A stretch of 10,866 nt of DNA from a virus (Duplodnaviria; Heunggongvirae; Uroviricota; Caudoviricetes), in IMG/VR virus record IMGVR_UViG_2579778899_000010, positions 1-10,866 of that record; one strand, 5' to 3'. Shown piece after piece: positions 1 through 10,866 of the stretch (its first letter is position 1; every line of letters starts with the position of its first letter). The position numbers were made by a program, and so were the translations under genes. The notes below the pieces were generated by a model. The model ran no database searches, was not told the DNA's origin, and worked only from the letters and a program-made list of their open reading frames with translations.

Positions 1-115
1 CACGTTCTAAGTTTTGGACGCCTGCTATAGAGATATCGACAGCCTCAGCAACTTCTCGCAACGTCAGCTTCATCTCTAAACGGCGTGCTTTCAGTCGTTC
101 GCCTCGTGTTTTCAT
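1..115 (-). CDS. Phage repressor-like HTH (XRE/cI family) regulator, N-terminal part only; gene continues beyond the window start
   Basis: Reverse complement of 115..1 reads ATG AAA ACA CGA GGC... = MKTRGERLKARRLEMKLTLREVAEAVDISIAGVQNLER, a typical XRE helix-turn-helix. It is divergent from the cro-like gene across operator repeats. A TATGAT hexamer lies 6 nt upstream of the ATG on the minus strand. The C-terminal domain is not visible. Confidence 0.75.
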   Translation of the reverse strand, partial: MKTRGERLKARRLEMKLTLREVAEAVDISIAGVQNLER

Positions 116-138
116 ACTGTAATCATAAATGATCTTCT

Positions 139-178
139 TATAGCTGGCTATAAAATTTATTTATTATAGCTGGCTTTA
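139..178. promoter_or_regulatory. Operator/divergent promoter region: two copies of TATAGCTGGCT(A/T)TA at 139-152 and 165-178 (imperfect 6-2-6 palindromes)
   Basis: Direct reading: TATAGC-TG-GCTATA at 139-152 and TATAGC-TG-GCTTTA at 165-178, centres 26 bp apart, between the divergently transcribed repressor-like and cro-like genes. The layout is that of lambdoid OR-type operators. Confidence 0.5.
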
Positions 179-206
179 ATTGTTGTTTATTGTTTATAAT
201 AACAAC

Positions 207-428
207 ATGAAACCAGAAGAACTTATTCGCCATTTTGGCAGTGTAGAAAAAGCAGCGGCAGGGGTAGGTGTAACACCCGGAGCTGTTTACCAATGGTTAA
301 CCGCTGGAGAGATTCCTTCATTGCGGCAAAGCGATATTGAAGTTCGTACTGCTTATAAGCTGAAGAGTGACTTTACAACTCGGCGGGTAAAGCAGTCGAT
401 TAAGGAGAGTCGTAAGCGTGGAGCTTGA
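207..428 (+). CDS. Cro-like small DNA-binding regulator (73 aa)
   Basis: ATG at 207 gives MKPEELIRHFGSVEKAAAGVGVTPGAVYQWLTAGEIPS..., with an HTH-like GSVEKAAAGVGVTPGAVYQW segment. It is first in the rightward operon, opposite the repressor. There is no SD; TATAAT at 195-200 sits 6 nt upstream of the ATG. The ORF track's 180 start is a TTG inside the operator. Confidence 0.65.
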   Translation: MKPEELIRHFGSVEKAAAGVGVTPGAVYQWLTAGEIPSLRQSDIEVRTAYKLKSDFTTRRVKQSIKESRKRGA

Positions 429-1128
429 GTATATACGCAGCTGCGTCTCTACGGCATTGGCTGATGTTCATTATCGCCAGCGTGGCATTCTGGAGGTCCA
501 GCTTGAGCAGATGCGTCTCGGTAGATCAGGACGGTTTAACAATAAACCAGTCCGGTCAATCAGTGTGGGGGATGATAACTCATACGAAGTGTCCGTTCCT
601 GCTGAGCCGGTTAGATTCCACCAGGGGAAAACATTTAAACAATCATCAATGTTGCTCACTGATATTGATTTTCAGAGCGCCAGCTGGCGCAGGGCTATTG
701 GTCAGTTGAATAACGAGGAATCAGCCTGGCTTTATTATTGCTACGGATGCAAGCCTGATTACAACAATGATGTGATTGTTTGTCAGTGGTTATGGCTTGA
801 TTTTCTGGTTGCTCATTCGGGGGGCGGCTTTAAAAAAATGAAGGCCTCCACGAAAAAAGCCATGCGGAAATTGATTTATTACGCGGCACAACAGGTTAAA
901 TCAGAACTTACGTGTGCTGAGGCAGTTGATGAGAGAGAACAGGACAGGCATCTGAGTTTTCTACTGAATATATCTATTGATAGCTGGAGACAAGATTATA
1001 AAGAACGCTGGCTTTTAATTAAGTCGCGATGTCTGAGCTTAAATCGAACTGCATTATTAAATGCGGCGGAGAAGCGCAGTGAAATCATCAAACGCCATCG
1101 GGCAGGAAGTGCCATTCTGTCTTTGTAA
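418..1128 (+). CDS. Hypothetical early-operon protein (236 aa); function not recognised (position is that of a cII-like or replication-type gene)
   Basis: GTG at 418 is preceded by the strong SD AAGGAGAG (401-408) and overlaps the cro-like stop. It is a long uninterrupted ORF in the operon frame. I cannot assign a family from the sequence alone. Confidence 0.6.
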   Translation: MELEYIRSCVSTALADVHYRQRGILEVQLEQMRLGRSGRFNNKPVRSISVGDDNSYEVSVPAEPVRFHQGKTFKQSSMLLTDIDFQSASWRRAIGQLNNEESAWLYYCYGCKPDYNNDVIVCQWLWLDFLVAHSGGGFKKMKASTKKAMRKLIYYAAQQVKSELTCAEAVDEREQDRHLSFLLNISIDSWRQDYKERWLLIKSRCLSLNRTALLNAAEKRSEIIKRHRAGSAILSL

Positions 1129-1135
1129 ACAAGTT

Positions 1136-1381
1136 ATGTTCAGGAAACCGTCGAAGCCAGAATTAAGGTATTCGGGGGTAAGAAATGAATATGTTATCTG
1201 GTGTCCAACTTGTGGTTACAGGACACGACCAGATAGTAATAAGCAGTCTGTAATTGCCGATTGGTATTTATCAAATCAGCCAGGTAATAAGCATATAGAA
1301 AATCTTTGGATTAAGCGTTACTTGGAAATCAGAGAGGGTGCGACCGTGGTCGCACAAGAAAATGAAAATAACGCCATTTAA
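1136..1381 (+). CDS. Small Cys-containing protein, putative zinc ribbon; start uncertain (1061 or 1136)
   Basis: The ORF contains WCPTCGY, and upstream FCLC if started at 1061. There is no clear SD. Its C-terminal codons (GATVVAQ) read straight through palindrome copy 1. Confidence 0.4.
   Translation: MFRKPSKPELRYSGVRNEYVIWCPTCGYRTRPDSNKQSVIADWYLSNQPGNKHIENLWIKRYLEIREGATVVAQENENNAI
1338..1355. repeat. Palindrome copy 1: GTGCGACC-GT-GGTCGCAC
   Basis: Read directly; 8-bp inverted arms around a central GT. Lies at the 1136/1362 gene junction, 6 nt before ATG 1362. Confidence 0.9.
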
Positions 1382-1565
1382 GCAGGGGCCGATGACGCAT
1401 GATGAAGCAGAGCGTCTTTCAGATACTTATCGGCGGCGTGGTAAGAAAGTTCTGGTTGTTCGTTCTGATTTTTTAGGTGATGGATATTGCGTTTATGTTC
1501 ATTTACCTGAATCAGAAAGAACGCCAAAACCATCCAGAACATATCAACAGAAAATTTGGGTATAG
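1362..1565 (+). CDS. Hypothetical small protein (67 aa); start uncertain (1362 or 1392)
   Basis: ATG at 1362 lies 6 nt after palindrome copy 1 and gives MKITPFKQGPMTHDEAERLSDTYRRRGKKVLVVRSDFLGDGYCVYVHLPESE.... The track's longer 1338 start is a GTG inside the palindrome. Confidence 0.4.
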   Translation: MKITPFKQGPMTHDEAERLSDTYRRRGKKVLVVRSDFLGDGYCVYVHLPESERTPKPSRTYQQKIWV

Positions 1566-1588
1566 ATAAACGTTGAGGAGAATTATTC

Positions 1589-2188
1589 GTGACTAATCAG
1601 ATTATTTACGACAGGAAACGGTCTGATGTAATGATTGACCTTGAAACAATGGGTACTAACACATGTGCTCCAATTGTTTCTATCGGGGCAGTGTTTTTTT
1701 CTCCAGAAAGTGAGGAATTAGGTCCTACTTTTTATGTGCCAGTGAATCTCAGAAGCTCGATGTTGAATGGTGGTATCGCCGATGGTGATACCATTTTATG
1801 GTGGTTGAAACAGAGCAAGGAAGCCAGAGCCGCTATTTGTACTAATGATGCCCTTGATATTAAGGATGCACTTTTTGAATTATCACACTTTATTACTTGC
1901 CATGCATGTAATTTAAAAAAATTGAAAGTATGGGGAAATGGAGCAACGTTCGATAATGTAATTTTACGCGGTGCTTATGAGCGCGTTGGCTTAGCCTGTC
2001 CGTGGGAATATTTTAATGATCAGGATGTTCGAACAATCGTTAATCTTGGTCAGTTTATTGGTTTTAATCCTAAAAAAGATATGCTATTTGATGGCGAACG
2101 ACACAATGCCCTGGCTGATGCTATTCATCAGGCTAAATATGTATCCGCAATTTTCTCCCGTCTTGTAAAAGGGCAAGGAGAATCGTAA
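1589..2188 (+). CDS. DEDDh-type 3'-5' exonuclease (DnaQ-like fold, phage Rv2179c-like family)
   Basis: GTG at 1589 with SD GAGGAG upstream. Motifs: D-x-E in MIDLETMG, a second Asp in GATFDNVIL, and H-x4-D in ERHNALADAIH. The size (199 aa) is typical. Confidence 0.8.
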   Translation: MTNQIIYDRKRSDVMIDLETMGTNTCAPIVSIGAVFFSPESEELGPTFYVPVNLRSSMLNGGIADGDTILWWLKQSKEARAAICTNDALDIKDALFELSHFITCHACNLKKLKVWGNGATFDNVILRGAYERVGLACPWEYFNDQDVRTIVNLGQFIGFNPKKDMLFDGERHNALADAIHQAKYVSAIFSRLVKGQGES

Positions 2189-2607
2189 TGGCAAAGGCTT
2201 TTACACCAGAACAGAGGGAAGAACTGAATAAACAAATTGTGGAACTCGTGCGCCTGAATGGACGAGGAACGGTTAGGCAACTTGCGGATGAAACTGGTAT
2301 TAGCCGGTGTGCTGTTAGTCGTTTATCAAGAGAGCTTGCTGCCAGTGGTGATTTGTATATCTCTGGCTCCGGGATATTTCTGTCTGCACAAGCACGCAAG
2401 GACTGGCAAAACGCCCGTAAAAAACTATCAAGAGTAAAGCCGAAGAAATCGGTAGTGGTTGATCCAGACCTTATCTGGTCATTACCTGACGGAGAAATAC
2501 GTCGTTACGACAGGCGCTTGAACATGATTTGTCACGATTGTCGGAAGAGCGAAGTTATGCAGCGTGTGTTGGCGTTTTATCAGGGAAATTTTCAGGAGGT
2601 GGCGTAG
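2188..2607 (+). CDS. Hypothetical protein with probable winged-helix/HTH segment (139 aa)
   Basis: SD AAGGAGA before ATG 2188, with TAATG overlap with the exonuclease stop. Candidate HTH in GTVRQLADETGISRCAVSRLSRELAASG. Confidence 0.65.
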   Translation: MAKAFTPEQREELNKQIVELVRLNGRGTVRQLADETGISRCAVSRLSRELAASGDLYISGSGIFLSAQARKDWQNARKKLSRVKPKKSVVVDPDLIWSLPDGEIRRYDRRLNMICHDCRKSEVMQRVLAFYQGNFQEVA

Positions 2608-2897
2608 TGAATATCGACACCACGATAACGATCGATACGGCCCTAAATACCGGTCTGGCACTTCTCGGTTGGTTTTACATCATGTTCAGTGCGGGGAAGT
2701 GGGCGGCCTCTGTTTTTCTAAAGCAGTGGGGAAAGCGCCGCAAACAGGAAAAACGCCAGAAAGCGTTGGAGGCGTTCTATGACGCATTTGAACTTAGCCG
2801 CATTGAGCCAGGCACAACAGCCAAGATAGCGACAAAAGGCGACCTGATGATAGTGATGTTCCGACAGGAGAGAGCAGAGAAAGGTGAATCAGCATGA
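2607..2897 (+). CDS. Small membrane protein (96 aa), one hydrophobic helix
   Basis: GTG at 2607 with SD AGGAGG at 2595-2600. Hydrophobic segment LALLGWFYIMFSAGKWAASVF is followed by a basic stretch KQWGKRRKQEKRQK. The track's 2529 start has no SD. Confidence 0.5.
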   Translation: MNIDTTITIDTALNTGLALLGWFYIMFSAGKWAASVFLKQWGKRRKQEKRQKALEAFYDAFELSRIEPGTTAKIATKGDLMIVMFRQERAEKGESA

Positions 2898-3643
2898 AAT
2901 TTTCTAAATTTTCTGAGTTGGTGAATCGTATTTTGTTGAATCGTATTTTGTCCAACAACCACAGCCATCGTCGCGATATGGATGTAACAATCGTTGTTCA
3001 TTCGCCTGGCAGCATTGGTTCAACACCTTCAGTTGAGGTTCAGTCAATTCACGCTGGTTTTGATTGGGATTCCGGGAAAGTGCTTATTTTCCCATCACAG
3101 CCACTGACCACGCTAACACCAGAACAGATTACTGATATCACTGATAGTGTGCGCAAAGGTCAGTCCTGGCACGCATATCAGGAATATAAAAATCATAAAG
3201 AGCAGTTGGAAAAATTGTCGATTGAGTTGGAATCAGCCAAAAATCACATAGCAGAACTGGAAGCCAAACCTGTAAGCCAAACTTACAAGTTAACTTTTGA
3301 GCAATGGCTGGAACAGCAGCATGACAAAATTGATGTTGATTGTGGATGTGTAAGTACTGAAATGCTTATGCACTGGATAAGGGTCGCGTATGAGGCTGGC
3401 AACTATCCGGTAACTCCGGATGGTTGGATAAGCTGTAGTGATCGAATGCCTGAAAAGGGCCAGAACGTGCTTATTTCGGTGAATTTCGATAGCTCTCTGG
3501 TTGAACCGCTAATATGCTCCGCACGCTATACCGGAAGCACCTTTCGGAGCGGAGATGCAACGATTAAGCCGGGTAATGGTATTGAGCAAGCAACTCACTG
3601 GATGCCACTACCAGAACCGCCGCAGGAGTCGAAGAGTGAATAA
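2894..3643 (+). CDS. DUF551-like phage protein (249 aa)
   Basis: ATG at 2894 after AAAGGTGA. The C-terminal portion GWISCSDRMPEKGQNVLIS...HWMPLPEPP matches what I recall of DUF551. An in-frame 15-bp tandem duplication lies near the 5' end. Confidence 0.65.
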   Translation: MKFSKFSELVNRILLNRILSNNHSHRRDMDVTIVVHSPGSIGSTPSVEVQSIHAGFDWDSGKVLIFPSQPLTTLTPEQITDITDSVRKGQSWHAYQEYKNHKEQLEKLSIELESAKNHIAELEAKPVSQTYKLTFEQWLEQQHDKIDVDCGCVSTEMLMHWIRVAYEAGNYPVTPDGWISCSDRMPEKGQNVLISVNFDSSLVEPLICSARYTGSTFRSGDATIKPGNGIEQATHWMPLPEPPQESKSE

Positions 3644-3857
3644 AGCAGAGTTATTTCAGAAAATATCGGCTCTCGCGACTGAATGCCACGCTATAGCATC
3701 TGAGCTTGATGTTGGTGATGAACGAACCGAGATGTTCGAAATATACAGTGTGCTGCGCAATCTCTGTCGGCGTGGCTACGCCACTCAAGTAGGGCGAATG
3801 ACTAACCCACTACTCTCATCCTGTGATGAGGATGACTCAGATGAGGATGACGAATGA
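3636..3857 (+). CDS. Small acidic protein (73 aa)
   Basis: GTG at 3636 with GGAG upstream, overlapping the preceding stop. The product ends in the acidic tail DEDDSDEDDE. The track's longer 3555 start overlaps the previous gene. Confidence 0.45.
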   Translation: MNKAELFQKISALATECHAIASELDVGDERTEMFEIYSVLRNLCRRGYATQVGRMTNPLLSSCDEDDSDEDDE

Positions 3858-4384
3858 TGCATAAATCAGTAGCCGGTGAGTTTCAGAAGGAAGTCGATAA
3901 TACTACCGTTCTATTGGACGATATTTTAAGCATTCTCGCGCTGCTTGAGGCTGGCGATTGGTCAGAACATTGCACTAAAACAGAGCTAGGCGGTCGGCTT
4001 GAAAGAGAGATTACACGACTTATTGGTGATGCGCAGGAAGCCACTGTCACTGGCTATGAGTTAATCGCTGAAGCTTGGCGTTTGATGGATGGACAAGACC
4101 CTAAAACCAGCGATTGGCATAGCAAGGCTTCGAAGTATTTAAATTCCAATATTGTAGAAAAAGTTGATGATGACCGTATTGAGGCCGTTAAGGCTGTGTT
4201 GCGTAGACTGGCTGGCAACTCTCCGGTAACTCCGGATGGTCATATTCAGTTTTCTGTTTCACTTCCTGCAGCGTTTGGTGGAGATAAATATTTTATTGAT
4301 GGTGTATTTCAACCTTTGAGATATGAGCGTGACTGTGAAAGGGCGGTTGTGGCCGCTGGCGGTGTAGTTAATTGGGTTAAGTAA
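3854..4384 (+). CDS. Hypothetical protein (176 aa)
   Basis: ATGA overlap with the upstream gene. It shares the peptide AGN(S/Y)PVTPDG with the DUF551-like protein, encoded by a 29/30-nt identical DNA segment. Confidence 0.65.
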   Translation: MMHKSVAGEFQKEVDNTTVLLDDILSILALLEAGDWSEHCTKTELGGRLEREITRLIGDAQEATVTGYELIAEAWRLMDGQDPKTSDWHSKASKYLNSNIVEKVDDDRIEAVKAVLRRLAGNSPVTPDGHIQFSVSLPAAFGGDKYFIDGVFQPLRYERDCERAVVAAGGVVNWVK

Positions 4385-4399
4385 TTTTCAGGAGGATTT

Positions 4400-4726
4400 A
4401 TGGCGCTGACACCGGCAGAACGGCAAAGGAGACGCAGGGAACGGTTGAAGAAGGAAGGCACATCAAGACGGGACTGGATTCTAGAACCTGACGAGTTACG
4501 TATGTTGGGGGAAATTTGTGTATTGCGTAGACCAGGGCGAGTTCCATATTCGGAGAACGAAGTCATTGGTTTGCTGATCAGGAAAAACTATAAGGAGCTG
4601 CAGAAGCAGCTATCTACTACTTGCCCGCGATGTGGTCAAAAAATGCCTGTTTCAGAATGCATTTTTGATGGCGAAGGGTCATGCCACCTTACAACCACGA
4701 GGCTGAAACTTGCGCTCAAAGCGTGA
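4400..4726 (+). CDS. Arginine-rich-motif protein with C-terminal Cys cluster (108 aa); candidate RNA-binding protein
   Basis: Strong SD CAGGAGG before ATG 4400. N-terminus MALTPAERQRRRRERLKKEG is an ARM-like basic stretch. C-terminus carries CPRCG...C...C. Confidence 0.7.
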   Translation: MALTPAERQRRRRERLKKEGTSRRDWILEPDELRMLGEICVLRRPGRVPYSENEVIGLLIRKNYKELQKQLSTTCPRCGQKMPVSECIFDGEGSCHLTTTRLKLALKA

Positions 4727-4744
4727 CTGGTCACGGAGGGATAA

Positions 4745-4987
4745 ATGGATAAAAAGGCATTGCTTTTTGAAATGATACGAAAACGGAGCGAAAAGAGCTT
4801 TTCTGATGGTGGTGATGGTTTTGTTTTCGCTTCGATGCTTTCTTTTGATGTTGGGTTAAATAGCAGAATTGTTAAAAGGATGCTTGATTCTGCTGTCCGT
4901 ACTGGACTTCTTGAGAAAGTTGATCGTGGCATAGGGAGAGAGCATAAGTATCGGGTCACACAGCAGTTTACGCAGTTAATTCATTGA
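4745..4987 (+). CDS. Hypothetical small protein, possible winged helix (80 aa)
   Basis: SD GGAGGG before ATG 4745. Last gene of the rightward early operon before the AT-rich SOS promoter region. Confidence 0.6.
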   Translation: MDKKALLFEMIRKRSEKSFSDGGDGFVFASMLSFDVGLNSRIVKRMLDSAVRTGLLEKVDRGIGREHKYRVTQQFTQLIH

Positions 4988-5008
4988 AAATTGACCGTAA
5001 AGTTTGAG

Positions 5009-5036
5009 TTTTACCCTGTAATTTTATACAGTATAA
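5009..5036 (+). promoter_or_regulatory. SOS-type promoter: -35 TTTACC (5009-5014), LexA box CTGTAATTTTATACAG (5015-5030), -10 TATAAA (5031-5036)
   Basis: CTGT-N8-ACAG with an AT-rich spacer is the E. coli LexA operator pattern. It exactly fills the 16-bp spacer between the -35-like and -10-like hexamers, 40 bp upstream of ATG 5070. Confidence 0.6.
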
Positions 5037-5069
5037 ATAACCTTTTTTAGTTAAATGGTATGAGATTTA

Positions 5070-5273
5070 ATGTCTGAAGCAGCCGTATCAACTCTTGAAC
5101 AACTCGATTCAAATTTAAGAGATATTGACGCCGTTCTGGATCTGGTTAGCGTCACCCTGGCTTCTCCAGAAGCCAGCCTACATATTGGTGAGGTTTCACG
5201 ACTCATCAACATGTCGCGAGAGATTGCCCAGCATTGTCAGCAAACTATCGCTGTTGAGCGTTCACATCATTGA
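5070..5273 (+). CDS. Small protein (67 aa) under putative LexA control; candidate SOS-induced antirepressor or induction factor
   Basis: ATG at 5070 downstream of the LexA-box promoter gives MSEAAVSTLEQLDSNLRDIDAVLDLVSVTLASPEASLHIGEVSRLINMSREIAQHCQQTIAVERSHH. SD is weak. Function is inferred from context only. Confidence 0.55.
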   Translation: MSEAAVSTLEQLDSNLRDIDAVLDLVSVTLASPEASLHIGEVSRLINMSREIAQHCQQTIAVERSHH

Positions 5274-5315
5274 TGCACACCCCGCCCTTCTGGACGGGGT
5301 AGTAAAAGAGTCTAA

Positions 5316-5603
5316 TTAATAAACAGCGCGAATATCGATGGTTGCGCCGCAGGCATGAGCATATTTAGCCAAAGTTTTCATACTTGCCCCTAAAGGATTG
5401 CTTTCCAGGCGGCTGATGGCTGACGGTCGCAACCCCATTCGTTCAGCCAGAGCTGATTTCGTTAAACCTGCTCTTTCCCTCATTTCGTATAACATTTCGA
5501 CCATCTCCAGCTCTTTGTCGGCCTCTTCATATCCTTTGACGGCTTCTGGAGTGTTGAGGAGTTTTTCTTTTACTTCGTTAAACGGGATGCCTTTCGCTTT
5601 CAT
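5316..5603 (-). CDS. HTH (XRE-family) antitoxin of a HigA-like type II TA pair (95 aa)
   Basis: Minus-strand ATG at 5603-5601 with SD AAGGAGA 7 nt upstream, overlapping the toxin stop by 1 nt. HTH segment LTKSALAERMGLRPSAISRLESN. Confidence 0.8.
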   Translation of the reverse strand: MKAKGIPFNEVKEKLLNTPEAVKGYEEADKELEMVEMLYEMRERAGLTKSALAERMGLRPSAISRLESNPLGASMKTLAKYAHACGATIDIRAVY

Positions 5604-5914
5604 CAGTTCATCTCCTTCAGGCGAGTTCTGGCGATTTCGATAGCCTTCACCGGTGTTTTCTGTGTCTTTTTTACAAATGCATGCAATAGATAAATTTCGT
5701 TACCAGTCGCGTAGGCGTACAGCGTTCTTGCGATGTTTTTATCCCCTACTCGTAGTTCAAAAAGCCCTCCACCTATTACACGGCTATGGGGCATCTTCAG
5801 TTTGTTGCCTTCCTTCTCCAGTCGCTCAATTAATCTGGTCATGCGACCTCGCAAATCATCTGGTAGTTCAAGCAGTTCATCCAGTGCTGCAGGGTGGGTT
5901 ATCACGTTAAACAT
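5603..5914 (-). CDS. RelE/ParE-superfamily toxin, HigB/Gp49-like (103 aa)
   Basis: Minus-strand ATG at 5914-5912 with GGAGG 7 nt upstream. Product MFNVITHPAALDELLELPDDLRGRMTRLIERL...GGLFELRVGDKNIARTLYAYATGNEIYLLHAFVKKTQKTP matches the RelE-fold Gp49/HigB pattern. Toxin-first order with a coupled HTH antitoxin. Confidence 0.8.
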   Translation of the reverse strand: MFNVITHPAALDELLELPDDLRGRMTRLIERLEKEGNKLKMPHSRVIGGGLFELRVGDKNIARTLYAYATGNEIYLLHAFVKKTQKTPVKAIEIARTRLKEMN

Positions 5915-6079
5915 ATTATAGCCTCCATAGCCATAAAATACACCAAAACAAGAAAAAAGCGCAAATTAAAAATTTCACTAAAAAGTTAAAAATAACACTG
6001 GATGTGTTCGTTTGGCAGAGTTACAGTTCGTGTCATTGAGGGGCAATAACCCACTAACTATATGAATTTGGAGGATATT

Positions 6080-6301
6080 ATGAATTATCAAGGTAACGAA
6101 AAAATGCGCGACGACGTTGCGGAGATAGCTAACGAACTGTATGAGTTGTGGCAGAAGGTTGAACGTTTCGAAAAGGAATATGGTTTCAACAGTACCAACC
6201 TGGCAGAACGACTGGCTGGTCGCTTAGTTGGGACTATGGGGCCAAAACTGGCTGAGTTGAACCGCTTTATGGCTGATGTTGATTTCCAGTTTCAAGATTG
6301 A
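6080..6301 (+). CDS. Hypothetical small protein (73 aa)
   Basis: Strong SD GGAGG (6069-6073) 6 nt before ATG 6080. The track's longer 6062 start has no SD. Confidence 0.55.
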   Translation: MNYQGNEKMRDDVAEIANELYELWQKVERFEKEYGFNSTNLAERLAGRLVGTMGPKLAELNRFMADVDFQFQD

Positions 6302-6314
6302 TTAGAGAGGCGTT

Positions 6315-6542
6315 ATGAATATTAATGAAATTCGTGGAAATATGACTGAAGCGGCCCTGAGTGTGGAATGTGTTATGCGTGGATACCCACGCATTTCCCT
6401 GAAAGAGTTAAGCGAAGCCTGTTTTTTGAGTCAAGCTGCCGTTGAATTTATCATCGAACAGATGATCTGTTTTGGGGTTGCAAAGCGTAGCGGGTCTGGT
6501 CGATATTCTTTGACCGATGAATATAAGCAGGCAACTTTCTAA
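6315..6542 (+). CDS. Hypothetical small protein with possible winged-helix DNA-binding fold (75 aa)
   Basis: SD GAGAGG before ATG 6315. Segment RISLKELSEACFLSQAAVEFIIEQMICFGVAKRSGSGRYSLT is wHTH-like. The stop lies 5 nt before palindrome copy 2. Confidence 0.5.
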   Translation: MNINEIRGNMTEAALSVECVMRGYPRISLKELSEACFLSQAAVEFIIEQMICFGVAKRSGSGRYSLTDEYKQATF

Positions 6543-6547
6543 AAACT

Positions 6548-6565
6548 GTGCGACCACGGTCGCAC
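6548..6565. repeat. Palindrome copy 2: GTGCGACC-AC-GGTCGCAC (central dinucleotide inverted relative to the other three; flanking T/A extend it to 20 bp, 6547-6566)
   Basis: Read directly. Immediately after the stop of the 6315..6542 gene and about 85 bp upstream of the intrinsic terminator. Confidence 0.9.
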
Positions 6566-6650
6566 AGCACAAAAACGAAAAAGCTTGGCAAAATTACGGT
6601 TTTTAGTTATTGTTTTGTTAAGTTGGGTTTTTTGTACCCAACATCCAACA

Positions 6651-6676
6651 AGCCGCCTTTATGGCGGTTTTTTTGT
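6651..6676 (+). terminator. Rho-independent terminator (hairpin AGCCGCC / GGCGGTT with 5-nt loop, then a T7 run)
   Basis: Sequence AGCCGCCTTTATGGCGGTTTTTTTGT: GC-rich stem plus a run of seven T, located between the small-gene pair and the methyltransferase. Confidence 0.6.
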
Positions 6677-6764
6677 GCCTGAAAAGTGGGCGCAGGACAA
6701 GTTGCAGCTTGTCCTGCGGTCAACCCATGCCAGAGCTATAGGCTGAACCTAAAGCCCACCCGCG

Positions 6765-7886
6765 ATGCGCATCGCCGGGTTAGCTTACCCAGGCAAAAAA
6801 ATAATAGCTATGTTCAAAACCACTAATATTCATGGCGCGCAACTCGTTTGCGCAGATTCTCTGCAATTTATCAAAACCATCCCTGATAACTCGGTCAATT
6901 TGATTGCAACAGACCCACCATACTTCGGCGTAAAGGCTAACGCATGGGATAACCAGTGGGATAGCGATGCTGACTTTTTGGGGTGGATTGATGAATTTTT
7001 GGCAGAATTTTGGCGGATATTGGCCCCTAATGGCAGCCTGTATATGTTTACCGGCTCTCGCCTTGCGTCAAAAATTGAATTATTAACTCGCGACCGTTTC
7101 AATGTTCTGAACCATATCATTTGGGCTAAACCCAGTGGTATGTGGCGCGGTTGTCATAAAGAAAGTTTAAGGGCTTATTTTCCTGCCACTGAAAGAATAT
7201 TATTTGCAGAGCATTACGGCGCGTCAGGTTATGCTAAAGGTCAGTCAGGTTATGCTTCAAAATGTGCAGATTTAAGAAAAAATATTTTTTCTCCACTAAT
7301 TGATGCTTTTTCGCTGGCTCGCCGTCAGTTAGATATATCAGCCGCAGACATTAATTCAGCAACAGGAAAGCAGATGTGTTCGCACTGGTTTTCTTATTCG
7401 CAGTGGCGGCTTCCATCATTAAGTGATTTTAATAAACTATGCGAATTATTTCGCAGGAAGGCAGATTCACTCGGTGTCCCGTGTCCATATCCTTTTAATG
7501 TTGATTATTCAGAACATGAAAAGCGTTATAGCGATCTGAAATTGCGTTATGAGGAAGTAAAGAAGCAGTATGATGATTTGAAGGCTCAGTATGAAAATTT
7601 GCGCCGCCCATTTCATGTTACTGCTGATGTACCTTATACCGATGTATGGGAGTTTCCTCCTGTGCAATATTATCCTGGCAAGCACCCATGTGAAAAACCT
7701 GCAGCGATGATGGAACATATTATAAAAAGTAGTTCCCGCCCCGGAGATATCGTTGCCGATTTCTTTATGGGATCAGGCTCTACTATTAAAGCCGCGCTGA
7801 AGTTAGGTCGTCAGGCAATCGGTATTGAGATTGAGGGTGAACGTTATCTTCAGACAGTTGATGAAGTGAAAAAGTTATTTGAGTAA
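6765..7886 (+). CDS. Orphan DNA methyltransferase, beta-class N6-adenine/N4-cytosine type (373 aa as drawn; alternative start ATG 6810)
   Basis: Motif IV DPPY in LIATDPPYFG near the N-terminus and motif I FFMGSGST near the C-terminus; this order is the beta-class permutation. A heptad-like insert YSEHEKRYSDLKLRYEEVKKQYDDLKAQYENL lies between them. Neither candidate start has an SD. No restriction endonuclease gene is adjacent. Confidence 0.85.
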   Translation: MRIAGLAYPGKKIIAMFKTTNIHGAQLVCADSLQFIKTIPDNSVNLIATDPPYFGVKANAWDNQWDSDADFLGWIDEFLAEFWRILAPNGSLYMFTGSRLASKIELLTRDRFNVLNHIIWAKPSGMWRGCHKESLRAYFPATERILFAEHYGASGYAKGQSGYASKCADLRKNIFSPLIDAFSLARRQLDISAADINSATGKQMCSHWFSYSQWRLPSLSDFNKLCELFRRKADSLGVPCPYPFNVDYSEHEKRYSDLKLRYEEVKKQYDDLKAQYENLRRPFHVTADVPYTDVWEFPPVQYYPGKHPCEKPAAMMEHIIKSSSRPGDIVADFFMGSGSTIKAALKLGRQAIGIEIEGERYLQTVDEVKKLFE

Positions 7887-7981
7887 CTGAAGAATATATT
7901 CCCCTGCCGTTTTTGATGGGGTTATTTCTCGCCGTATAGTTTCCAAGCCGAAACCTCAGCAACTATTGCGAGGTAAGAGAT

Positions 7982-8254
7982 ATGAAGATGGATGAACGAT
8001 ACAGCAGCGCATCTTATGGTAGTGCTGGTCTTACTGCGTTCTTTGCCAGCCTGTCATTGCAGGATTGGGGCTTCATTATCGGTGTCGCGTTCAGCATTAT
8101 CCTCGGTGTACTTACATACCGGCTCAATAAACGCGAGCAGATGAAGCGCACGAAGATATTGCAGGACATATTGGATAAAACTGATGCCAATAATATTTCC
8201 GCCACGGCGATGGTTATTGGTGAATTGGGAAAGAGAGCACCGAAGGAAATATGA
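7982..8254 (+). CDS. Holin, pinholin-like with two TMDs (90 aa), possible dual-start motif MKM
   Basis: ATG at 7982 and again at 7988. Two hydrophobic segments, [13 protein letters not shown] and [18 protein letters not shown], then a charged tail. Sits immediately upstream of, and overlapping, a SAR endolysin gene. Confidence 0.65.
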
Positions 8255-8817
8255 TGCAGTCATCATTACGCAAAGCTGTCGCAACTGCTATTGGTGGCGG
8301 GGCTATTGCCATAGCATCTGTGCTCATCTCTGGTCCGAGCGGCAACGATGGTCTGGAAGGTGTGAGACATAACCCCTACAAAGACATCGTTGGTGTATGG
8401 ACTGTATGTTACGGGCATACAGGAAAAGACATTATGCTCGGTAAAACGTATACCGAAGCAGAATGCAAAGCTCTCCTGAATAAAGACCTTGCTACTGTCG
8501 CCAGACAAATTAACCCGTACATCAAAGTCGATATACCGGAAACAACGCGTGGTGCTCTTTACTCGTTCGTTTACAACGTGGGTGCAGGCAATTTCAGAAC
8601 ATCGACACTTCTTCGCAAAATCAACCAGGGCGATATCAAAGGTGCATGTGATCAACTACGTCGCTGGACATATGCTGGCGGCAAGCAATGGAAAGGGCTG
8701 ATGACTCGCCGTGAGATTGAGCGTGAAGTCTGTTTGTGGGGCAGCAATGAGCAGAGTAACCGCAATTATCTCCGCACTGGTTATCTGCATCATCGTCTGC
8801 CTGTCGTGGGCTGTTAA
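8251..8817 (+). CDS. SAR-type endolysin (T4-lysozyme-like muramidase, GH24), with an apparently extended C-terminus (188 aa)
   Basis: N-terminal signal-anchor-release segment [26 protein letters not shown]. Catalytic region [25 protein letters not shown] carries the Glu/Asp/Thr arrangement. SD GAAGGAAAT precedes ATG 8251. The last 24 aa are the Rz leader read in another frame. Confidence 0.85.
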
Positions 8818-9208
8818 TCATTACCGTGATAACGCCATCGCCTACAAGGAGCAGCGCGACAAAAACGCCAGAGAGCTGAAGCTGGCGAACGCCACTATCA
8901 AAGACTTGCAGATCCGCCAGCGTGATGCAGCGGCGCTGGATGCCAAATACACGAAGGACTTAGCTGATGCCAAAAAGCAGCTTGATGATTTGCAGCGTTG
9001 TGTTCGCACTGGCAAGTGTGGGCTGCACCTCAACGCCAGATGTTCCGCGAACGGAGCGACCAGCACCGGCGGCCTGGGCGATGTTACCGGCCCCCGACTT
9101 ACTGACTCCGCTGAACGGGATTATTTCACCCTCAGAGAGCGAATCGTCACAGTGACGAAACAGGTTGGATATTTGCAGGAGTACATCAGGACGCAATGCC
9201 TGAATTAA
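8747..9208 (+). CDS. Rz: Rz i-spanin (153 aa)
   Basis: [49 protein letters not shown]... closely matches phage lambda Rz as I recall it: N-terminal TMD then a coiled-coil periplasmic domain, C-terminus ...YIRTQCLN. Confidence 0.85.
8967..9155 (+). CDS. Rz1: Rz1 o-spanin lipoprotein, nested within Rz in the +1 frame (62 aa)
   Basis: SD AAGGA 8 nt before ATG 8967. Signal peptide with lipobox-like ...ALASVGC, then a proline-rich mature part ending ...[11 protein letters not shown], as in lambda Rz1. Confidence 0.75.
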
Positions 9209-9249
9209 TCCATCTGCATCAAAAACGAACTCAATTTGTTGGATAGTGA

Positions 9250-9561
9250 ATGAAAATTTATATTTCCGGGCCAATGACGGGATATGAGAACTCTAATCGT
9301 GACGCCTTTAATAAAGAGGCAGATCGTTTGTCACGACATGGTCACTCTGTCTTGAATCCAGCCACTTTGCCTAATGGTCTGACACAACGTGAATACATGG
9401 ATATTTGCTTTGCAATGCTTCGTTGTGCTGATGCTATTTTGATGCTTCCTGGCTGGAAAGCGTCTGCTGGAGCAACTGCTGAGTATCATTACGCATACAA
9501 GATGGAGATGCCGGTATTCACTACGCTGAATTACCCGCCAGCTTGTTCCTCTGTAGCATAA
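9250..9561 (+). CDS. Small protein with nucleoside 2-deoxyribosyltransferase-like N-terminus (DUF4406-like), 103 aa
   Basis: MKIYISGPMTGYENSNRDAFNKEADRL... resembles the N-terminal signature of NDT-like/DUF4406 proteins. The family assignment is from memory and unverified. First gene after Rz. Confidence 0.55.
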   Translation: MKIYISGPMTGYENSNRDAFNKEADRLSRHGHSVLNPATLPNGLTQREYMDICFAMLRCADAILMLPGWKASAGATAEYHYAYKMEMPVFTTLNYPPACSSVA

Positions 9562-9580
9562 AAATCTCTTTGTTTCTCGT

Positions 9581-9598
9581 GTGCGACCGTGGTCGCAC
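9581..9598. repeat. Palindrome copy 3: GTGCGACC-GT-GGTCGCAC
   Basis: Read directly. 19 nt after the stop of the 9250..9561 gene, preceded by the boxA-like string TCTCTTTG (9564-9571). Confidence 0.9.
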
Positions 9599-9800
9599 AT
9601 TAAATACCGCGCTGCATCGTCGCCGTATTTCCGCATTAACCATGACCGTAGCCCGACGGGGAACTCCTCTGCGCGAGTGTGCGGAAATAATCAAAAACGA
9701 TGCACACCGGGTTTTTACCGCGCTAATGATTCGCGGGTTTGTCCCTCATGCTCGCCAGTCCTGTGCGAGGGTGGAAGAAACAGGGCATGTATTCAGGAGC

Positions 9801-9818
9801 GTGCGACCGTGGTCGCAC
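9801..9818. repeat. Palindrome copy 4: GTGCGACC-GT-GGTCGCAC
   Basis: Read directly. Exactly 220 bp from copy 3 (start to start), 23 nt upstream of ATG 9842. Confidence 0.9.
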
Positions 9819-9841
9819 GGTATCTTTGTCAGGAGGTTTTG

Positions 9842-10702
9842 ATGAAAGAGTTGCAAAAAATTAATTCAATAATGGAAAGATTAAGTGCTCTTGAGCGTAA
9901 GCTGGACGATTGTGGAAAGCTGTGTGTTGAAAAGCAAAATGAGCTTTACCGGGAATTTTTTACAATCGTAAGTGAGCTGATGCCAATTGTTAATAACTGC
10001 CTGATGACATCCAGATTTTTTAATGTCGATGCTACTACATCCAGAAAATTTTCTGTGAAAATTCAAGAAAGAGTTTCTGGTAGTGTGACAAGAGAGATGG
10101 CTGAACAGTTGGTGGCAATGAGCAATAAAACAAAAAGAAAAAAGGCATTGCTTGTAACAGCAAATCAGCTTTCAGGGCGCGTTGACTTTCAGGTCAGACA
10201 GGGTGGGCGTGTACTGGTAAATGATGCGTTCGTTGGACGTAGCTTTAGTCCTTACTCGATAAAATATGATGTTGATGCAGATGATCAGGATATCAGCATT
10301 TCCTGGAAATCTGAGACAGCAGGAATTGTATTAACAGCAGAGTTGTTGAGTGATGATAAAAATGATGTCCAGCATCATTTGGACGAAAAGAATCATATTT
10401 CTGAAATTTGTATGAAGCCACGCAGCGGAATGACTTTATTGTCACGCACTCTTGCTGCTGGCTTTTCTGCACCGGAAAAACGTGTGCTTCTGGTAGTGCC
10501 TGAAGATGCAGATATTCGACCACTGAATGGCTGTGATGTTATTAGTGCAAAAACATTGCATACCCGCGTCATTCCTGTACCGGATGTGGTCATTATTGAT
10601 GATGTTGAGAAATGCAAGTCTGTTTCCTCAACTGCCACAATCAAGCGAATTTTACGTTGTAGCACGTCGGCTGTTGTATTCCGGAAGCAGTTACATAACT
10701 AA
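9842..10702 (+). CDS. Hypothetical protein, 286 aa, AT-rich moron gene of unknown function
   Basis: Strong SD AGGAGG (9831-9836) before ATG 9842. Long clean ORF with no hydrophobic helices noticed and no recognisable motifs. The track's 9581 start is a GTG inside palindrome copy 3. Confidence 0.7.
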   Translation: MKELQKINSIMERLSALERKLDDCGKLCVEKQNELYREFFTIVSELMPIVNNCLMTSRFFNVDATTSRKFSVKIQERVSGSVTREMAEQLVAMSNKTKRKKALLVTANQLSGRVDFQVRQGGRVLVNDAFVGRSFSPYSIKYDVDADDQDISISWKSETAGIVLTAELLSDDKNDVQHHLDEKNHISEICMKPRSGMTLLSRTLAAGFSAPEKRVLLVVPEDADIRPLNGCDVISAKTLHTRVIPVPDVVIIDDVEKCKSVSSTATIKRILRCSTSAVVFRKQLHN

Positions 10703-10825
10703 CCAGTTTTGTTTTGCAGAACATCCTCAACTAAAAGCTTATAGAAAGAGAGCCTGAGATATTTTTTCTGTCTCTCGTAGTTGTTTATTTTTCTCGAACA
10801 GGCTTACAACTTACAGGATATAAAC

Positions 10826-10866
10826 ATGCAAGAAGAAGCAAATAAAATTCTTGTTGATTTATTGAA
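10826..10866 (+). CDS. 5' end of an unknown gene (MQEEANKILVDLL...), truncated by the window end
   Basis: ATG at 10826 preceded by ACAGGATA. Only 13 codons are visible. Confidence 0.3.
   Translation, partial: MQEEANKILVDLL

Follow-up and report, generated by a model that had tools for sequence, protein, structure and literature searches.

This report concerns an 18-bp palindrome that recurs four times in the IMG/VR record IMGVR_UViG_2579778899_000010 (Caudoviricetes), of which we analysed a stretch of 10,866 nucleotides, positions 1 to 10,866, hereafter the window. Judged from its sequence, the window covers the region from Q to the lysis genes of a linear plasmid-prophage of Escherichia coli of the N15/phiKO2 type, because near-identical full-length relatives have telomeres, a protelomerase, RepA and sopAB. 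By megablast, the window matched Escherichia phage PhiR46_1 at 98–99% identity over 90–97% of its length, and ~16 E. coli plasmid records of 46–75 kb matched equally well; phages N15 and phiKO2 were 73–75% identical over parts of the length. The full-length relatives (~46–48 kb, 98–99% identity) are linear records with telL/telR and a protelomerase, that is, with the enzyme and the hairpin telomeres that mark a linear plasmid-prophage, and they carry a 4-kb RepA-type (CyRepA1) replication gene, cI/cro/Q and a lambda-like virion module. At their far end, ~27 kb from the window sites, lie sopA and a ParB/SopB gene; the relatives PV340565 and NZ_CP145143 (98–99% identity) encode SopA together with a SopB that bears the SoPB_HTH domain.

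The four copies of the palindrome, named below with reference to the inverted repeats (IRs) of N15, are as follows.

1338–1355, no strand: copy 1, positional homologue of N15 IR2; putative SopB-binding centromere site, 210 bp 3' of the Q stop and within the open reading frame (ORF) 1061–1381
6548–6565, no strand: copy 2, positional homologue of N15 IR3, 19 bp 5' of the late-promoter −35 hexamer
9581–9598, no strand: copy 3, IR4-class site, homologous in position to the fourth site; as in phiKO2, it follows directly on the DUF4406 gene
9801–9818, no strand: copy 4, additional IR4-class site, 23 nt 5' of the gene at 9842–10702, on an exact mosaic junction

A pattern search for GTGCGACC-NN-GGTCGCAC returned exactly these four matches and no further match in the window, even with up to three mismatches. 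The chance expectation is 0.03 matches, and none of 200 dinucleotide-preserving shuffles yielded four, bearing out the sequence-only reading, which had judged the exact recurrence at these places too frequent for chance. The arms are identical in all four copies, and copy 2 has AC as its central dinucleotide where the other three have GT, again as first noticed; the 16-bp core is thus an inverted repeat, TGCGACC-RY-GGTCGCA. Copies are spaced by 220 bp to 5.2 kb, and a tandem array is absent. Copy 2 is indeed the reverse complement of the other three, but the inversion that had been seen in this carries no meaning, because the polarity of the centre is not conserved among relatives: the IR2 position holds AC, GC, GT, AT or TC, and the copy-4 position both GT and AC. 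Polarity as a functional signal was therefore rejected, both orientations as well as AT, GC and TC centres being found at the same position.

Placement at gene boundaries, the other property initially ascribed to the motif, holds for three copies. Copy 2 begins 5 nt past the stop of 6315–6542, copy 3 begins 19 nt past the stop of 9250–9561, and 23 nt separate the end of copy 4 from the ATG at 9842. Copy 1, however, lies inside a genuine, conserved coding frame (1061–1381), eight codons ahead of its stop, and the relatives have a fifth copy inside repA. A survey of the relatives for junction placement and orientation, as had been proposed, accordingly found intergenic sites, but also those in repA and ORF 1061–1381, with an orientation that varies at the IR2 and copy-4 positions. 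The ORFs with a GTG start inside the motif (1338.., 6548.., 9581..; 'MRPWSH') do exist in the ORF list but are artefacts of mechanical ORF calling; the annotated genes of near-identical relatives start at window positions 1392 and 9842.

Correspondence with the centromere sites of N15 and the putative partitioning sites of phiKO2

In complete genomes, the only GACC-NN-GGTC sequences were copies of TGCGACC-NN-GGTCGCA, four in N15, four in phiKO2 and five in each of two full-length relatives. The N15 repeats, IR1–IR4, have reportedly long been known as its centromere sites. The arms of the window copies are identical to those of the IR2 oligonucleotide, and of the IR1–IR4 oligonucleotides, printed in PMC7205306. 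N15 SopB binds IR1–4 and, unlike F SopB, functions with them; on a 4xIR array it gives rise to foci (PMC7205306); moreover, plasmids with the N15 centromere site within repA are stabilised by sopAB (PMC2847241), and N15 is cited among replicons with dispersed centromere-like sites (PMC3235114). The phiKO2 RefSeq record (NC_005857) labels its four 18-mers, at syntenic positions, 'putative plasmid partitioning site'. The motif, which the sequence-only reading had not recognised as any known element, is therefore the published N15 IR centromere sequence, already annotated in phiKO2.

The positions agree as closely as the sequences. The flanks of copy 1 align with those of N15 IR2 and phiKO2 site 2 (~200 bp 3' of Q) at a mean column identity of 88%, and copy 2 aligns with N15 IR3/p52 and phiKO2 site 3, the −35, −10 and terminator elements being conserved. 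Copy 3, after the DUF4406 gene, matches phiKO2 site 4 (48618–48635), which stands just past the homologous gp58 nucleoside deoxyribosyltransferase/DUF4406-like gene. Copies 1, 2 and 3 are thus syntenic with N15 IR2, N15 IR3 and phiKO2 site 4, respectively. The equivalent of IR1, GTGCGACCACGGTCGCAT, lies within repA of the relatives, ~2.4 kb upstream of the copy-1-equivalent position and left of the window. Copy 4, 220 bp beyond copy 3, has no counterpart in N15 or phiKO2.

Like the sites of this lineage, N15 IR1–IR4 have the identical 16-bp core and are dispersed rather than tandem; one is in repA, one follows Q, one precedes the late promoter and one follows the lysis/accessory genes. N15, like the full-length relatives of the window, is a telomere-bearing linear replicon with cognate SopAB. 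In contrast to the four sites of N15, this lineage has five, the IR4-class site being doubled, 220 bp apart, around a lambdoid patch; the centres are GT/AC versus AC/TC/AT/AC in N15; and at the fourth site N15 has a cytosine methylase gene and gp59, unlike this lineage. The N15 sites have been tested experimentally, whereas this lineage is known from sequence. With phiKO2, it has in common the 18-mer GTGCGACCACGGTCGCAC and the four positions, including that after the DUF4406-like gene.

Taken together, the four 18-mers are very probably N15-type IR centromere sites (dispersed, sopC/parS-like) for SopB partition of a linear plasmid-prophage, given the core identity, the three-position synteny, the presence of SopAB in near-identical relatives, the restriction to one family and the conserved purine–pyrimidine centre. 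What lies here is a known type of element in a new E. coli lineage, with one extra site, and not a new operator, nut site or repetitive extragenic palindromic (REP) element. In the proposed mechanism, each site would be bound by a dimer of SopB, a helix-turn-helix (HTH) partition protein of the ParB family (type Ia); its gene and that of the ATPase SopA are placed, from the full-length relatives, outside the window at the other end of the linear plasmid-prophage. SopB would nucleate on each palindrome and then spread, forming partition complexes that SopA would move apart on the nucleoid, such that both daughter cells would inherit the low-copy linear prophage. For this element, we infer SopB binding, partition activity and the effect on late genes alike.

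By analogy with N15, copies 1 and 2 probably also help late transcription in lytic growth, because the geometry of Q/IR2 and of IR3/late promoter is identical to that of N15: Q and copy 1 are separated from copy 2 and the late promoter by 5.2 kb in the same manner, and the Q-dependent late promoter is ~5.4 kb away from the Q gene. N15 mutants in IR2 or IR3 reportedly lyse late after induction, and IR3, Q, IR2 and SopAB together are said to raise expression from the late promoter. The N15 arrangement, with sites scattered in the regulatory region and two of them bracketing the interval between Q and the late promoter, is kept in a lineage with lambda-like virion genes, and this supports the view that the arrangement of scattered sites may itself be under selection. 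The 18-mers merit the label of SopB centromere (partition) site in E. coli N15-like plasmid-prophage records, where they are now unannotated or, as for N15 IR4, called a terminator. The N15 RefSeq record (NC_001901) labels IR4 (45560–45584) as the stem-loop of a 'putative rho-independent transcription terminator', which is probably wrong or incomplete because IR4 is the fourth SopB centromere site.

The SopB proteins of the relatives are 72–74% identical to N15 SopB, contain the Pfam SoPB_HTH domain and match the crystal structures of the F SopB DNA-binding domain (3MKY, 3MKW and 3MKZ). Four F SopB residues have been proposed to read sopC, R190, K191, R195 and R219, and R190, R195 and R219 are kept in the N15-type SopB of the relatives. 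Compared with F sopC, TGGGACCACGGTCCCA, the present site has a single difference in each arm, at position 3 (C versus G), so that 6 of 7 arm positions are identical, including all five (2, 4, 5, 6 and 7) that are essential for F SopB; position 3 is the least conserved in the F system and is needed only for optimal binding. F SopB further requires a purine–pyrimidine centre, a rule that the window copies follow (GT, AC, GT and GT). The F system and the present one thus have the same protein family, with an HTH homologous to PDB 3MKY, the same 7-2-7 architecture and the same centre rule, but F carries 10–12 tandem copies at one locus, as opposed to single copies over ~10 kb here, and F SopB does not use N15 sites. 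An identity with F-plasmid sopC proper was rejected, since the ~43-bp tandem repeats, each with TGGGACCACGGTCCCA, are absent and arm position 3 is C. Chromosomal parS sites (Spo0J/ParB) are likewise single 16-bp palindromes, dispersed through the origin-proximal domain near a replication gene, some of them within genes, and serve as ParB nucleation sites; their consensus, TGTTNCACGTGAAACA, and ParB subfamily differ from those of the present sites.

Distribution and mosaic junctions

A scan of IMG/VR yielded at least 153 exact sites in at least 119 loci. Context analysis placed 151 of the 153 matches listed in N15/phiKO2-like DNA, and all 151 have a purine–pyrimidine centre (AC 79, GT 64, AT 5, GC 3), AA or CC being confined to the two unrelated matches. 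In 596 Gb of bacterial genomes, a scan that samples the matches and gives a lower bound returned mostly single matches scattered over unrelated high-GC taxa (mean GC 0.66). Among the matches listed, their number is roughly at chance level for 16 specified bases, and 32 of the 119 in unrelated genomes have a purine–pyrimidine centre, as expected of random centres; three sites on two enterobacterial contigs lie in N15-like DNA. The motif is thus specific to the N15/phiKO2-like phage-plasmid family and is not a host repeat, because 151 of the 153 viral matches listed sit in such DNA and those listed in unrelated genomes look like chance.

Several sites outside the syntenic set were encountered in these scans. 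About 28 phiKO2-like Klebsiella contigs have an extra exact site 18 bp past the major capsid stop (for example, L019 4071–4088 and L023 5307–5324), set in a longer palindrome, ACTCT-site-AGAGT, that is followed by a separate intrinsic terminator; phiKO2 itself is without it, as is the lineage described here. Nine contigs carry an exact site inside a gp7-like head gene (for example, L006 7220–7237 and L007 6382–6399), where it ends a run of ~27-bp tandem repeats with a unit starting GTGCGAC, from which it may have arisen. Among the unrelated genome loci listed, a second exact match was present only in a Stellaceae metagenome-assembled genome (L182, 3315–3332 and 6040–6057), a double match that we rejected as a coincidence arising from a duplicated gene-end terminator, GGGG-GTGCGACCTCGGTCGCAC-CCCC plus a T-run.

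Around copies 3 and 4, the window is mosaic, and two further features matter here.

9609–9790, no strand: lambdoid intergenic patch of 182 bp (ylcI–bor/iss spacer) between copies 3 and 4; 85% identical to phage 1H12
L247 4044–4061, L245 6193–6210, and L248, L249 and L250 at ~2544–2561: copy-4-type palindromes in lambdoid prophages

The lambda-like phage 1H12 shares window positions 8261–9139 (lysis genes) and 9609–9790 with no palindromes, and its homology over the 182-bp patch stops ~10 bp short of copies 3 and 4. Of 5,426 complete E. coli genomes, 3,181 contain the spacer patch, at 4,891 chromosomal places in all; it also occurs at L122 2955–3133 and L246 1501–1686, and in the window bor is replaced by the DUF4406 gene and copy 3. 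In seven distinct relatives anchored on copy 4, the left flank is kept over 71–120 bp and the right flank over 0 bp, with at least three alternative right-hand modules, and one relative shows such a homology break at copy 3. Clustering of 40-bp flanks indicated that left and right types reassort reticulately around IR4-class sites. No such reassortment was detected by this clustering at IR2 (33 of 33). The left flanks at IR3 fall into three clusters, which look like diverged forms of a single homologous sequence and not like products of exchange.

Flank-anchored queries, used rather than the bare 18-mer, recovered the copy-4-type left flank together with the palindrome from 303 complete E. coli genomes. 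These copies are almost always chromosomal and belong to integrated lambdoid prophages, where the lysis region is on one side and the terminase genes are on the other; most of the alignments end at the right edge of the palindrome. The 18-mer is intact in strain M18, has one mismatch in the essential GGTC (GGCC) in Rb-50 and CFSAN018748, and has three changes in CE10. Strain A25 has a symmetric double change, GTGCAACC-GT-GGTTGCAC, which could be due either to selection for a hairpin or to the correction of a quasi-palindrome by template switching.

Decay of the palindrome goes with lambdoid context. With the left flank as bait in IMG/VR, the N15-type 'agc' junction was intact in 28 of 29 cases, and the lambdoid-type 'tct' junction was intact in 8 and mutated in 34, while another 10 had lost the site by deletion between GGTCT direct repeats. 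In these ten loci, with the junction ...TTCAGGTCT|GTCAGATATTGAATTCAT, the palindrome and ~10 following bases are missing and the boundaries fall on the GGTCT direct repeat, which suggests a deletion by slippage or short-homology recombination. Sorted by marker genes, the site was intact in 14 of 14 loci with N15-like markers only and in 12 of 46 with lambdoid markers, a sorting that is imprecise for short loci, as 8 intact 'agc'-flank sites have lambdoid markers only. The contrast between intact and decayed sites is descriptive, with no formal test, and the loci are not phylogenetically independent. The pattern is consistent with exchange at the palindrome and later decay of the site wherever there is no Sop system to maintain it.

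It is therefore conceivable, though we hold this to be doubtful, that the IR4-class palindromes (copies 3 and 4), kept identical by selection for SopB binding, are the actual crossover points among N15-like phage-plasmids and between these and integrated lambdoid prophages. Such a role would explain the homology breaks at the palindrome edge, the reassortment of flanks and the presence of copy-4-type sites in hundreds of E. coli chromosomal prophages. More speculatively, intact chromosomal copies could titrate SopB and so interfere with incoming N15-like plasmids. Short conserved boundary or linker sequences are a feature of lambdoid module junctions in the modular theory of phage evolution. 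As there, alternative modules at copies 3 and 4 have only the palindrome in common, with homology breaking off at its edge; unlike those linkers, the shared sequence here would have an independent centromere function, and copies 1 and 2 do not behave in this way. The literature searched contained no published link between IR sites and mosaic junctions, and this junction-and-decay pattern is the only part of our results that goes beyond existing knowledge. If confirmed, it would be a concrete case of a functional protein-binding site acting as a recombination linker between phage-plasmids and integrated phages.

Weighing the alternatives

Several observations weigh against centromere function. 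The sopAB genes lie outside the window itself, and their presence follows from the full-length relatives. The F SopB contact K191 is N in all N15-type SopB, so that the details of recognition differ from those in F. Some integrated lambdoid prophages that are not known to encode Sop have an intact copy-4-type palindrome, and sequence presence alone is for this reason no proof of centromere use. The role in late transcription leans on what is reportedly seen in N15 mutants. The palindromes also form stable RNA hairpins (−12.6 to −16.3 kcal/mol), with copy 4 found by a terminator-like scan. Finally, the binding and partition experiments come from N15 and not from this lineage (PMC7205306, PMC2847241).

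The hairpins raise the question of whether the palindromes act in RNA, as terminators, as RNase processing or stabilising stems, or as the nut/boxB-like antitermination sites that the sequence-only reading had offered among its candidates, and to this we give little credence. All four copies fold into 7–9 bp stems with a 4-nt loop, the terminator scan lists copy 4 with a T-rich tail, the RefSeq label of N15 IR4 points the same way, and one chromosomal variant has a symmetric, stem-preserving double change. Folding, however, is inevitable for a perfect palindrome, and compensatory changes were found in no variant besides that chromosomal one. The arms do not vary among N15, phiKO2 and this lineage, whereas the flanks show a divergence of ~12–25%, and IR1 variants are asymmetric (GAGCGACC...GGTCGCAC in N15, ...GGTCGCAT here). 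Two sites lie within coding sequences (repA and ORF 1061–1381), both orientations are found at one position, and the purine–pyrimidine rule, being symmetric under reverse complementation, is a property of duplex DNA. Moreover, the capsid-proximal site of phiKO2-like contigs adjoins a separate, genuine terminator, and antitermination in this phage is of the Q type, not the N/nut type. An intrinsic terminator was rejected, since only copy 4 passes a lenient scan (with the weak T tail GTATCTTTGT), copies 1–3 have no T-run on the + strand and two family members are within genes. The lambda nut site consists of boxA and a 15-nt boxB hairpin with a GNRA-like pentaloop, and is used by an N-type antiterminator; it was rejected on account of the 7–9 bp stem with a 4-nt loop, the missing boxA, the Q-type antiterminator and the lack of any Rfam family match in a scan of the window.

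We consider it less probable again that the palindromes are primarily recombination linkers for module exchange, with no partition role. The recombination boundary proposed at the outset does apply to copies 3 and 4, where homology ends at the palindrome edge and flank types reassort around the only shared sequence, but as a secondary property, and it fails for copies 1 and 2, since IR2 flanks never reassort and the IR3 clusters look like divergence. Partition function is documented for the identical N15 sequence, site integrity goes with N15-like context, and exchange is better seen as a by-product of identical, selected 18–20 bp in diverged genomes. There is still less to be said for an operator of a small nearby regulator (the winged-helix product of 6315–6542, or those of 4400–4726 or 4745–4987) controlling adjacent promoters, in spite of the position of the copy 2 centre ~30 bp 5' of the late-promoter −35 and the winged-helix matches of ORF 6315–6542, which are weak and below the Pfam cut-off. 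Experiments in N15 identify this very sequence as a SopB site, a recognisable promoter stands beside only one of the four window copies, other sites are inside repA and ORF 1061–1381, and the motif follows SopB-type elements and no single neighbour gene, with the right-hand neighbours of copy 4 varying freely. The earlier suggestion of an operator was right in expecting the site of a dimeric DNA-binding protein; that protein, however, would be SopB, encoded ~27 kb away, and the site primarily a centromere. A LexA box was rejected by inspection, as it needs CTG-N10-CAG and copy 2 with its flanks gives CTG-N16-CAG. Least probable of all, to a degree that makes it negligible, is a generic host repeat of the REP or bacterial interspersed mosaic element type carried by the prophage. 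E. coli chromosomes do contain the palindrome as single occurrences in lambdoid prophages, but all of these are at one prophage junction and not dispersed, and the matches listed in both scans, chance-like in bacteria and N15/phiKO2-like in viruses, speak for the family; a check for host-wide density, which had been put forward as the way to refute a phage motif, thus came out negative. Centromere function of the N15 type remains the reading that we favour.

Genes and signals around the sites

The neighbourhood of the centromere candidates contains the following features in addition to those given above.

418–1128, + strand: Q-type late antiterminator gene (Pfam Phage_antiter_Q, E = 4e-84; annotated Q in relatives), with copy 1 just 3'
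1061–1381, + strand: ORF of 106 aa with CxxC...CxxC, containing copy 1 (encoding ..EGATVVAQ..) and showing a codon-position substitution bias
6585–6613, + strand: late promoter, N15 p52 homologue, with −35 TTGGCA, a 17-nt spacer and −10 TATTGT (promoter scan)
6621–6677, + strand: two conserved hairpins 3' of the late promoter (terminator scan and N15/phiKO2 alignment; terminator annotated in both records)
9250–9561, + strand: DUF4406 gene, homologue of N15 gp57 and phiKO2 gp58 (Pfam DUF4406, E = 2.7e-34), followed by copy 3

The ORF at 1061–1381 overlaps the 3' end of Q, is conserved in N15 and phiKO2 and is unannotated in the RefSeq relatives. Its substitutions, clearly biased to the third codon position, number at positions 1, 2 and 3 16, 7 and 38 versus N15 and 18, 11 and 47 versus phiKO2, and its product has a weak Lar_restr_allev (restriction alleviation) match (E = 3.6e-4), below the Pfam cut-off. 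The late promoter aligns with the annotated −35 and −10 elements of N15 (41162/41185) and phiKO2. Of the two hairpins 3' of it, both ahead of the methylase gene, the second (6650–6670 plus a T-run) is an intrinsic terminator, on which Q antitermination presumably acts. The first (6621–6641, GTTGGGT-7 nt-ACCCAAC) is conserved in N15 and phiKO2 and has no T-run; it may belong to the Q-utilisation region. Finally, a leftward pair of ORFs (95 and 103 aa) at 5316–5914 on the − strand lies in the only stretch with a reversed GC skew. Its counterparts in the relatives and in N15 (genes 48/49) are annotated as HTH antitoxin and RelE/ParE toxin, and the pair would be a second plasmid-maintenance module within the window.

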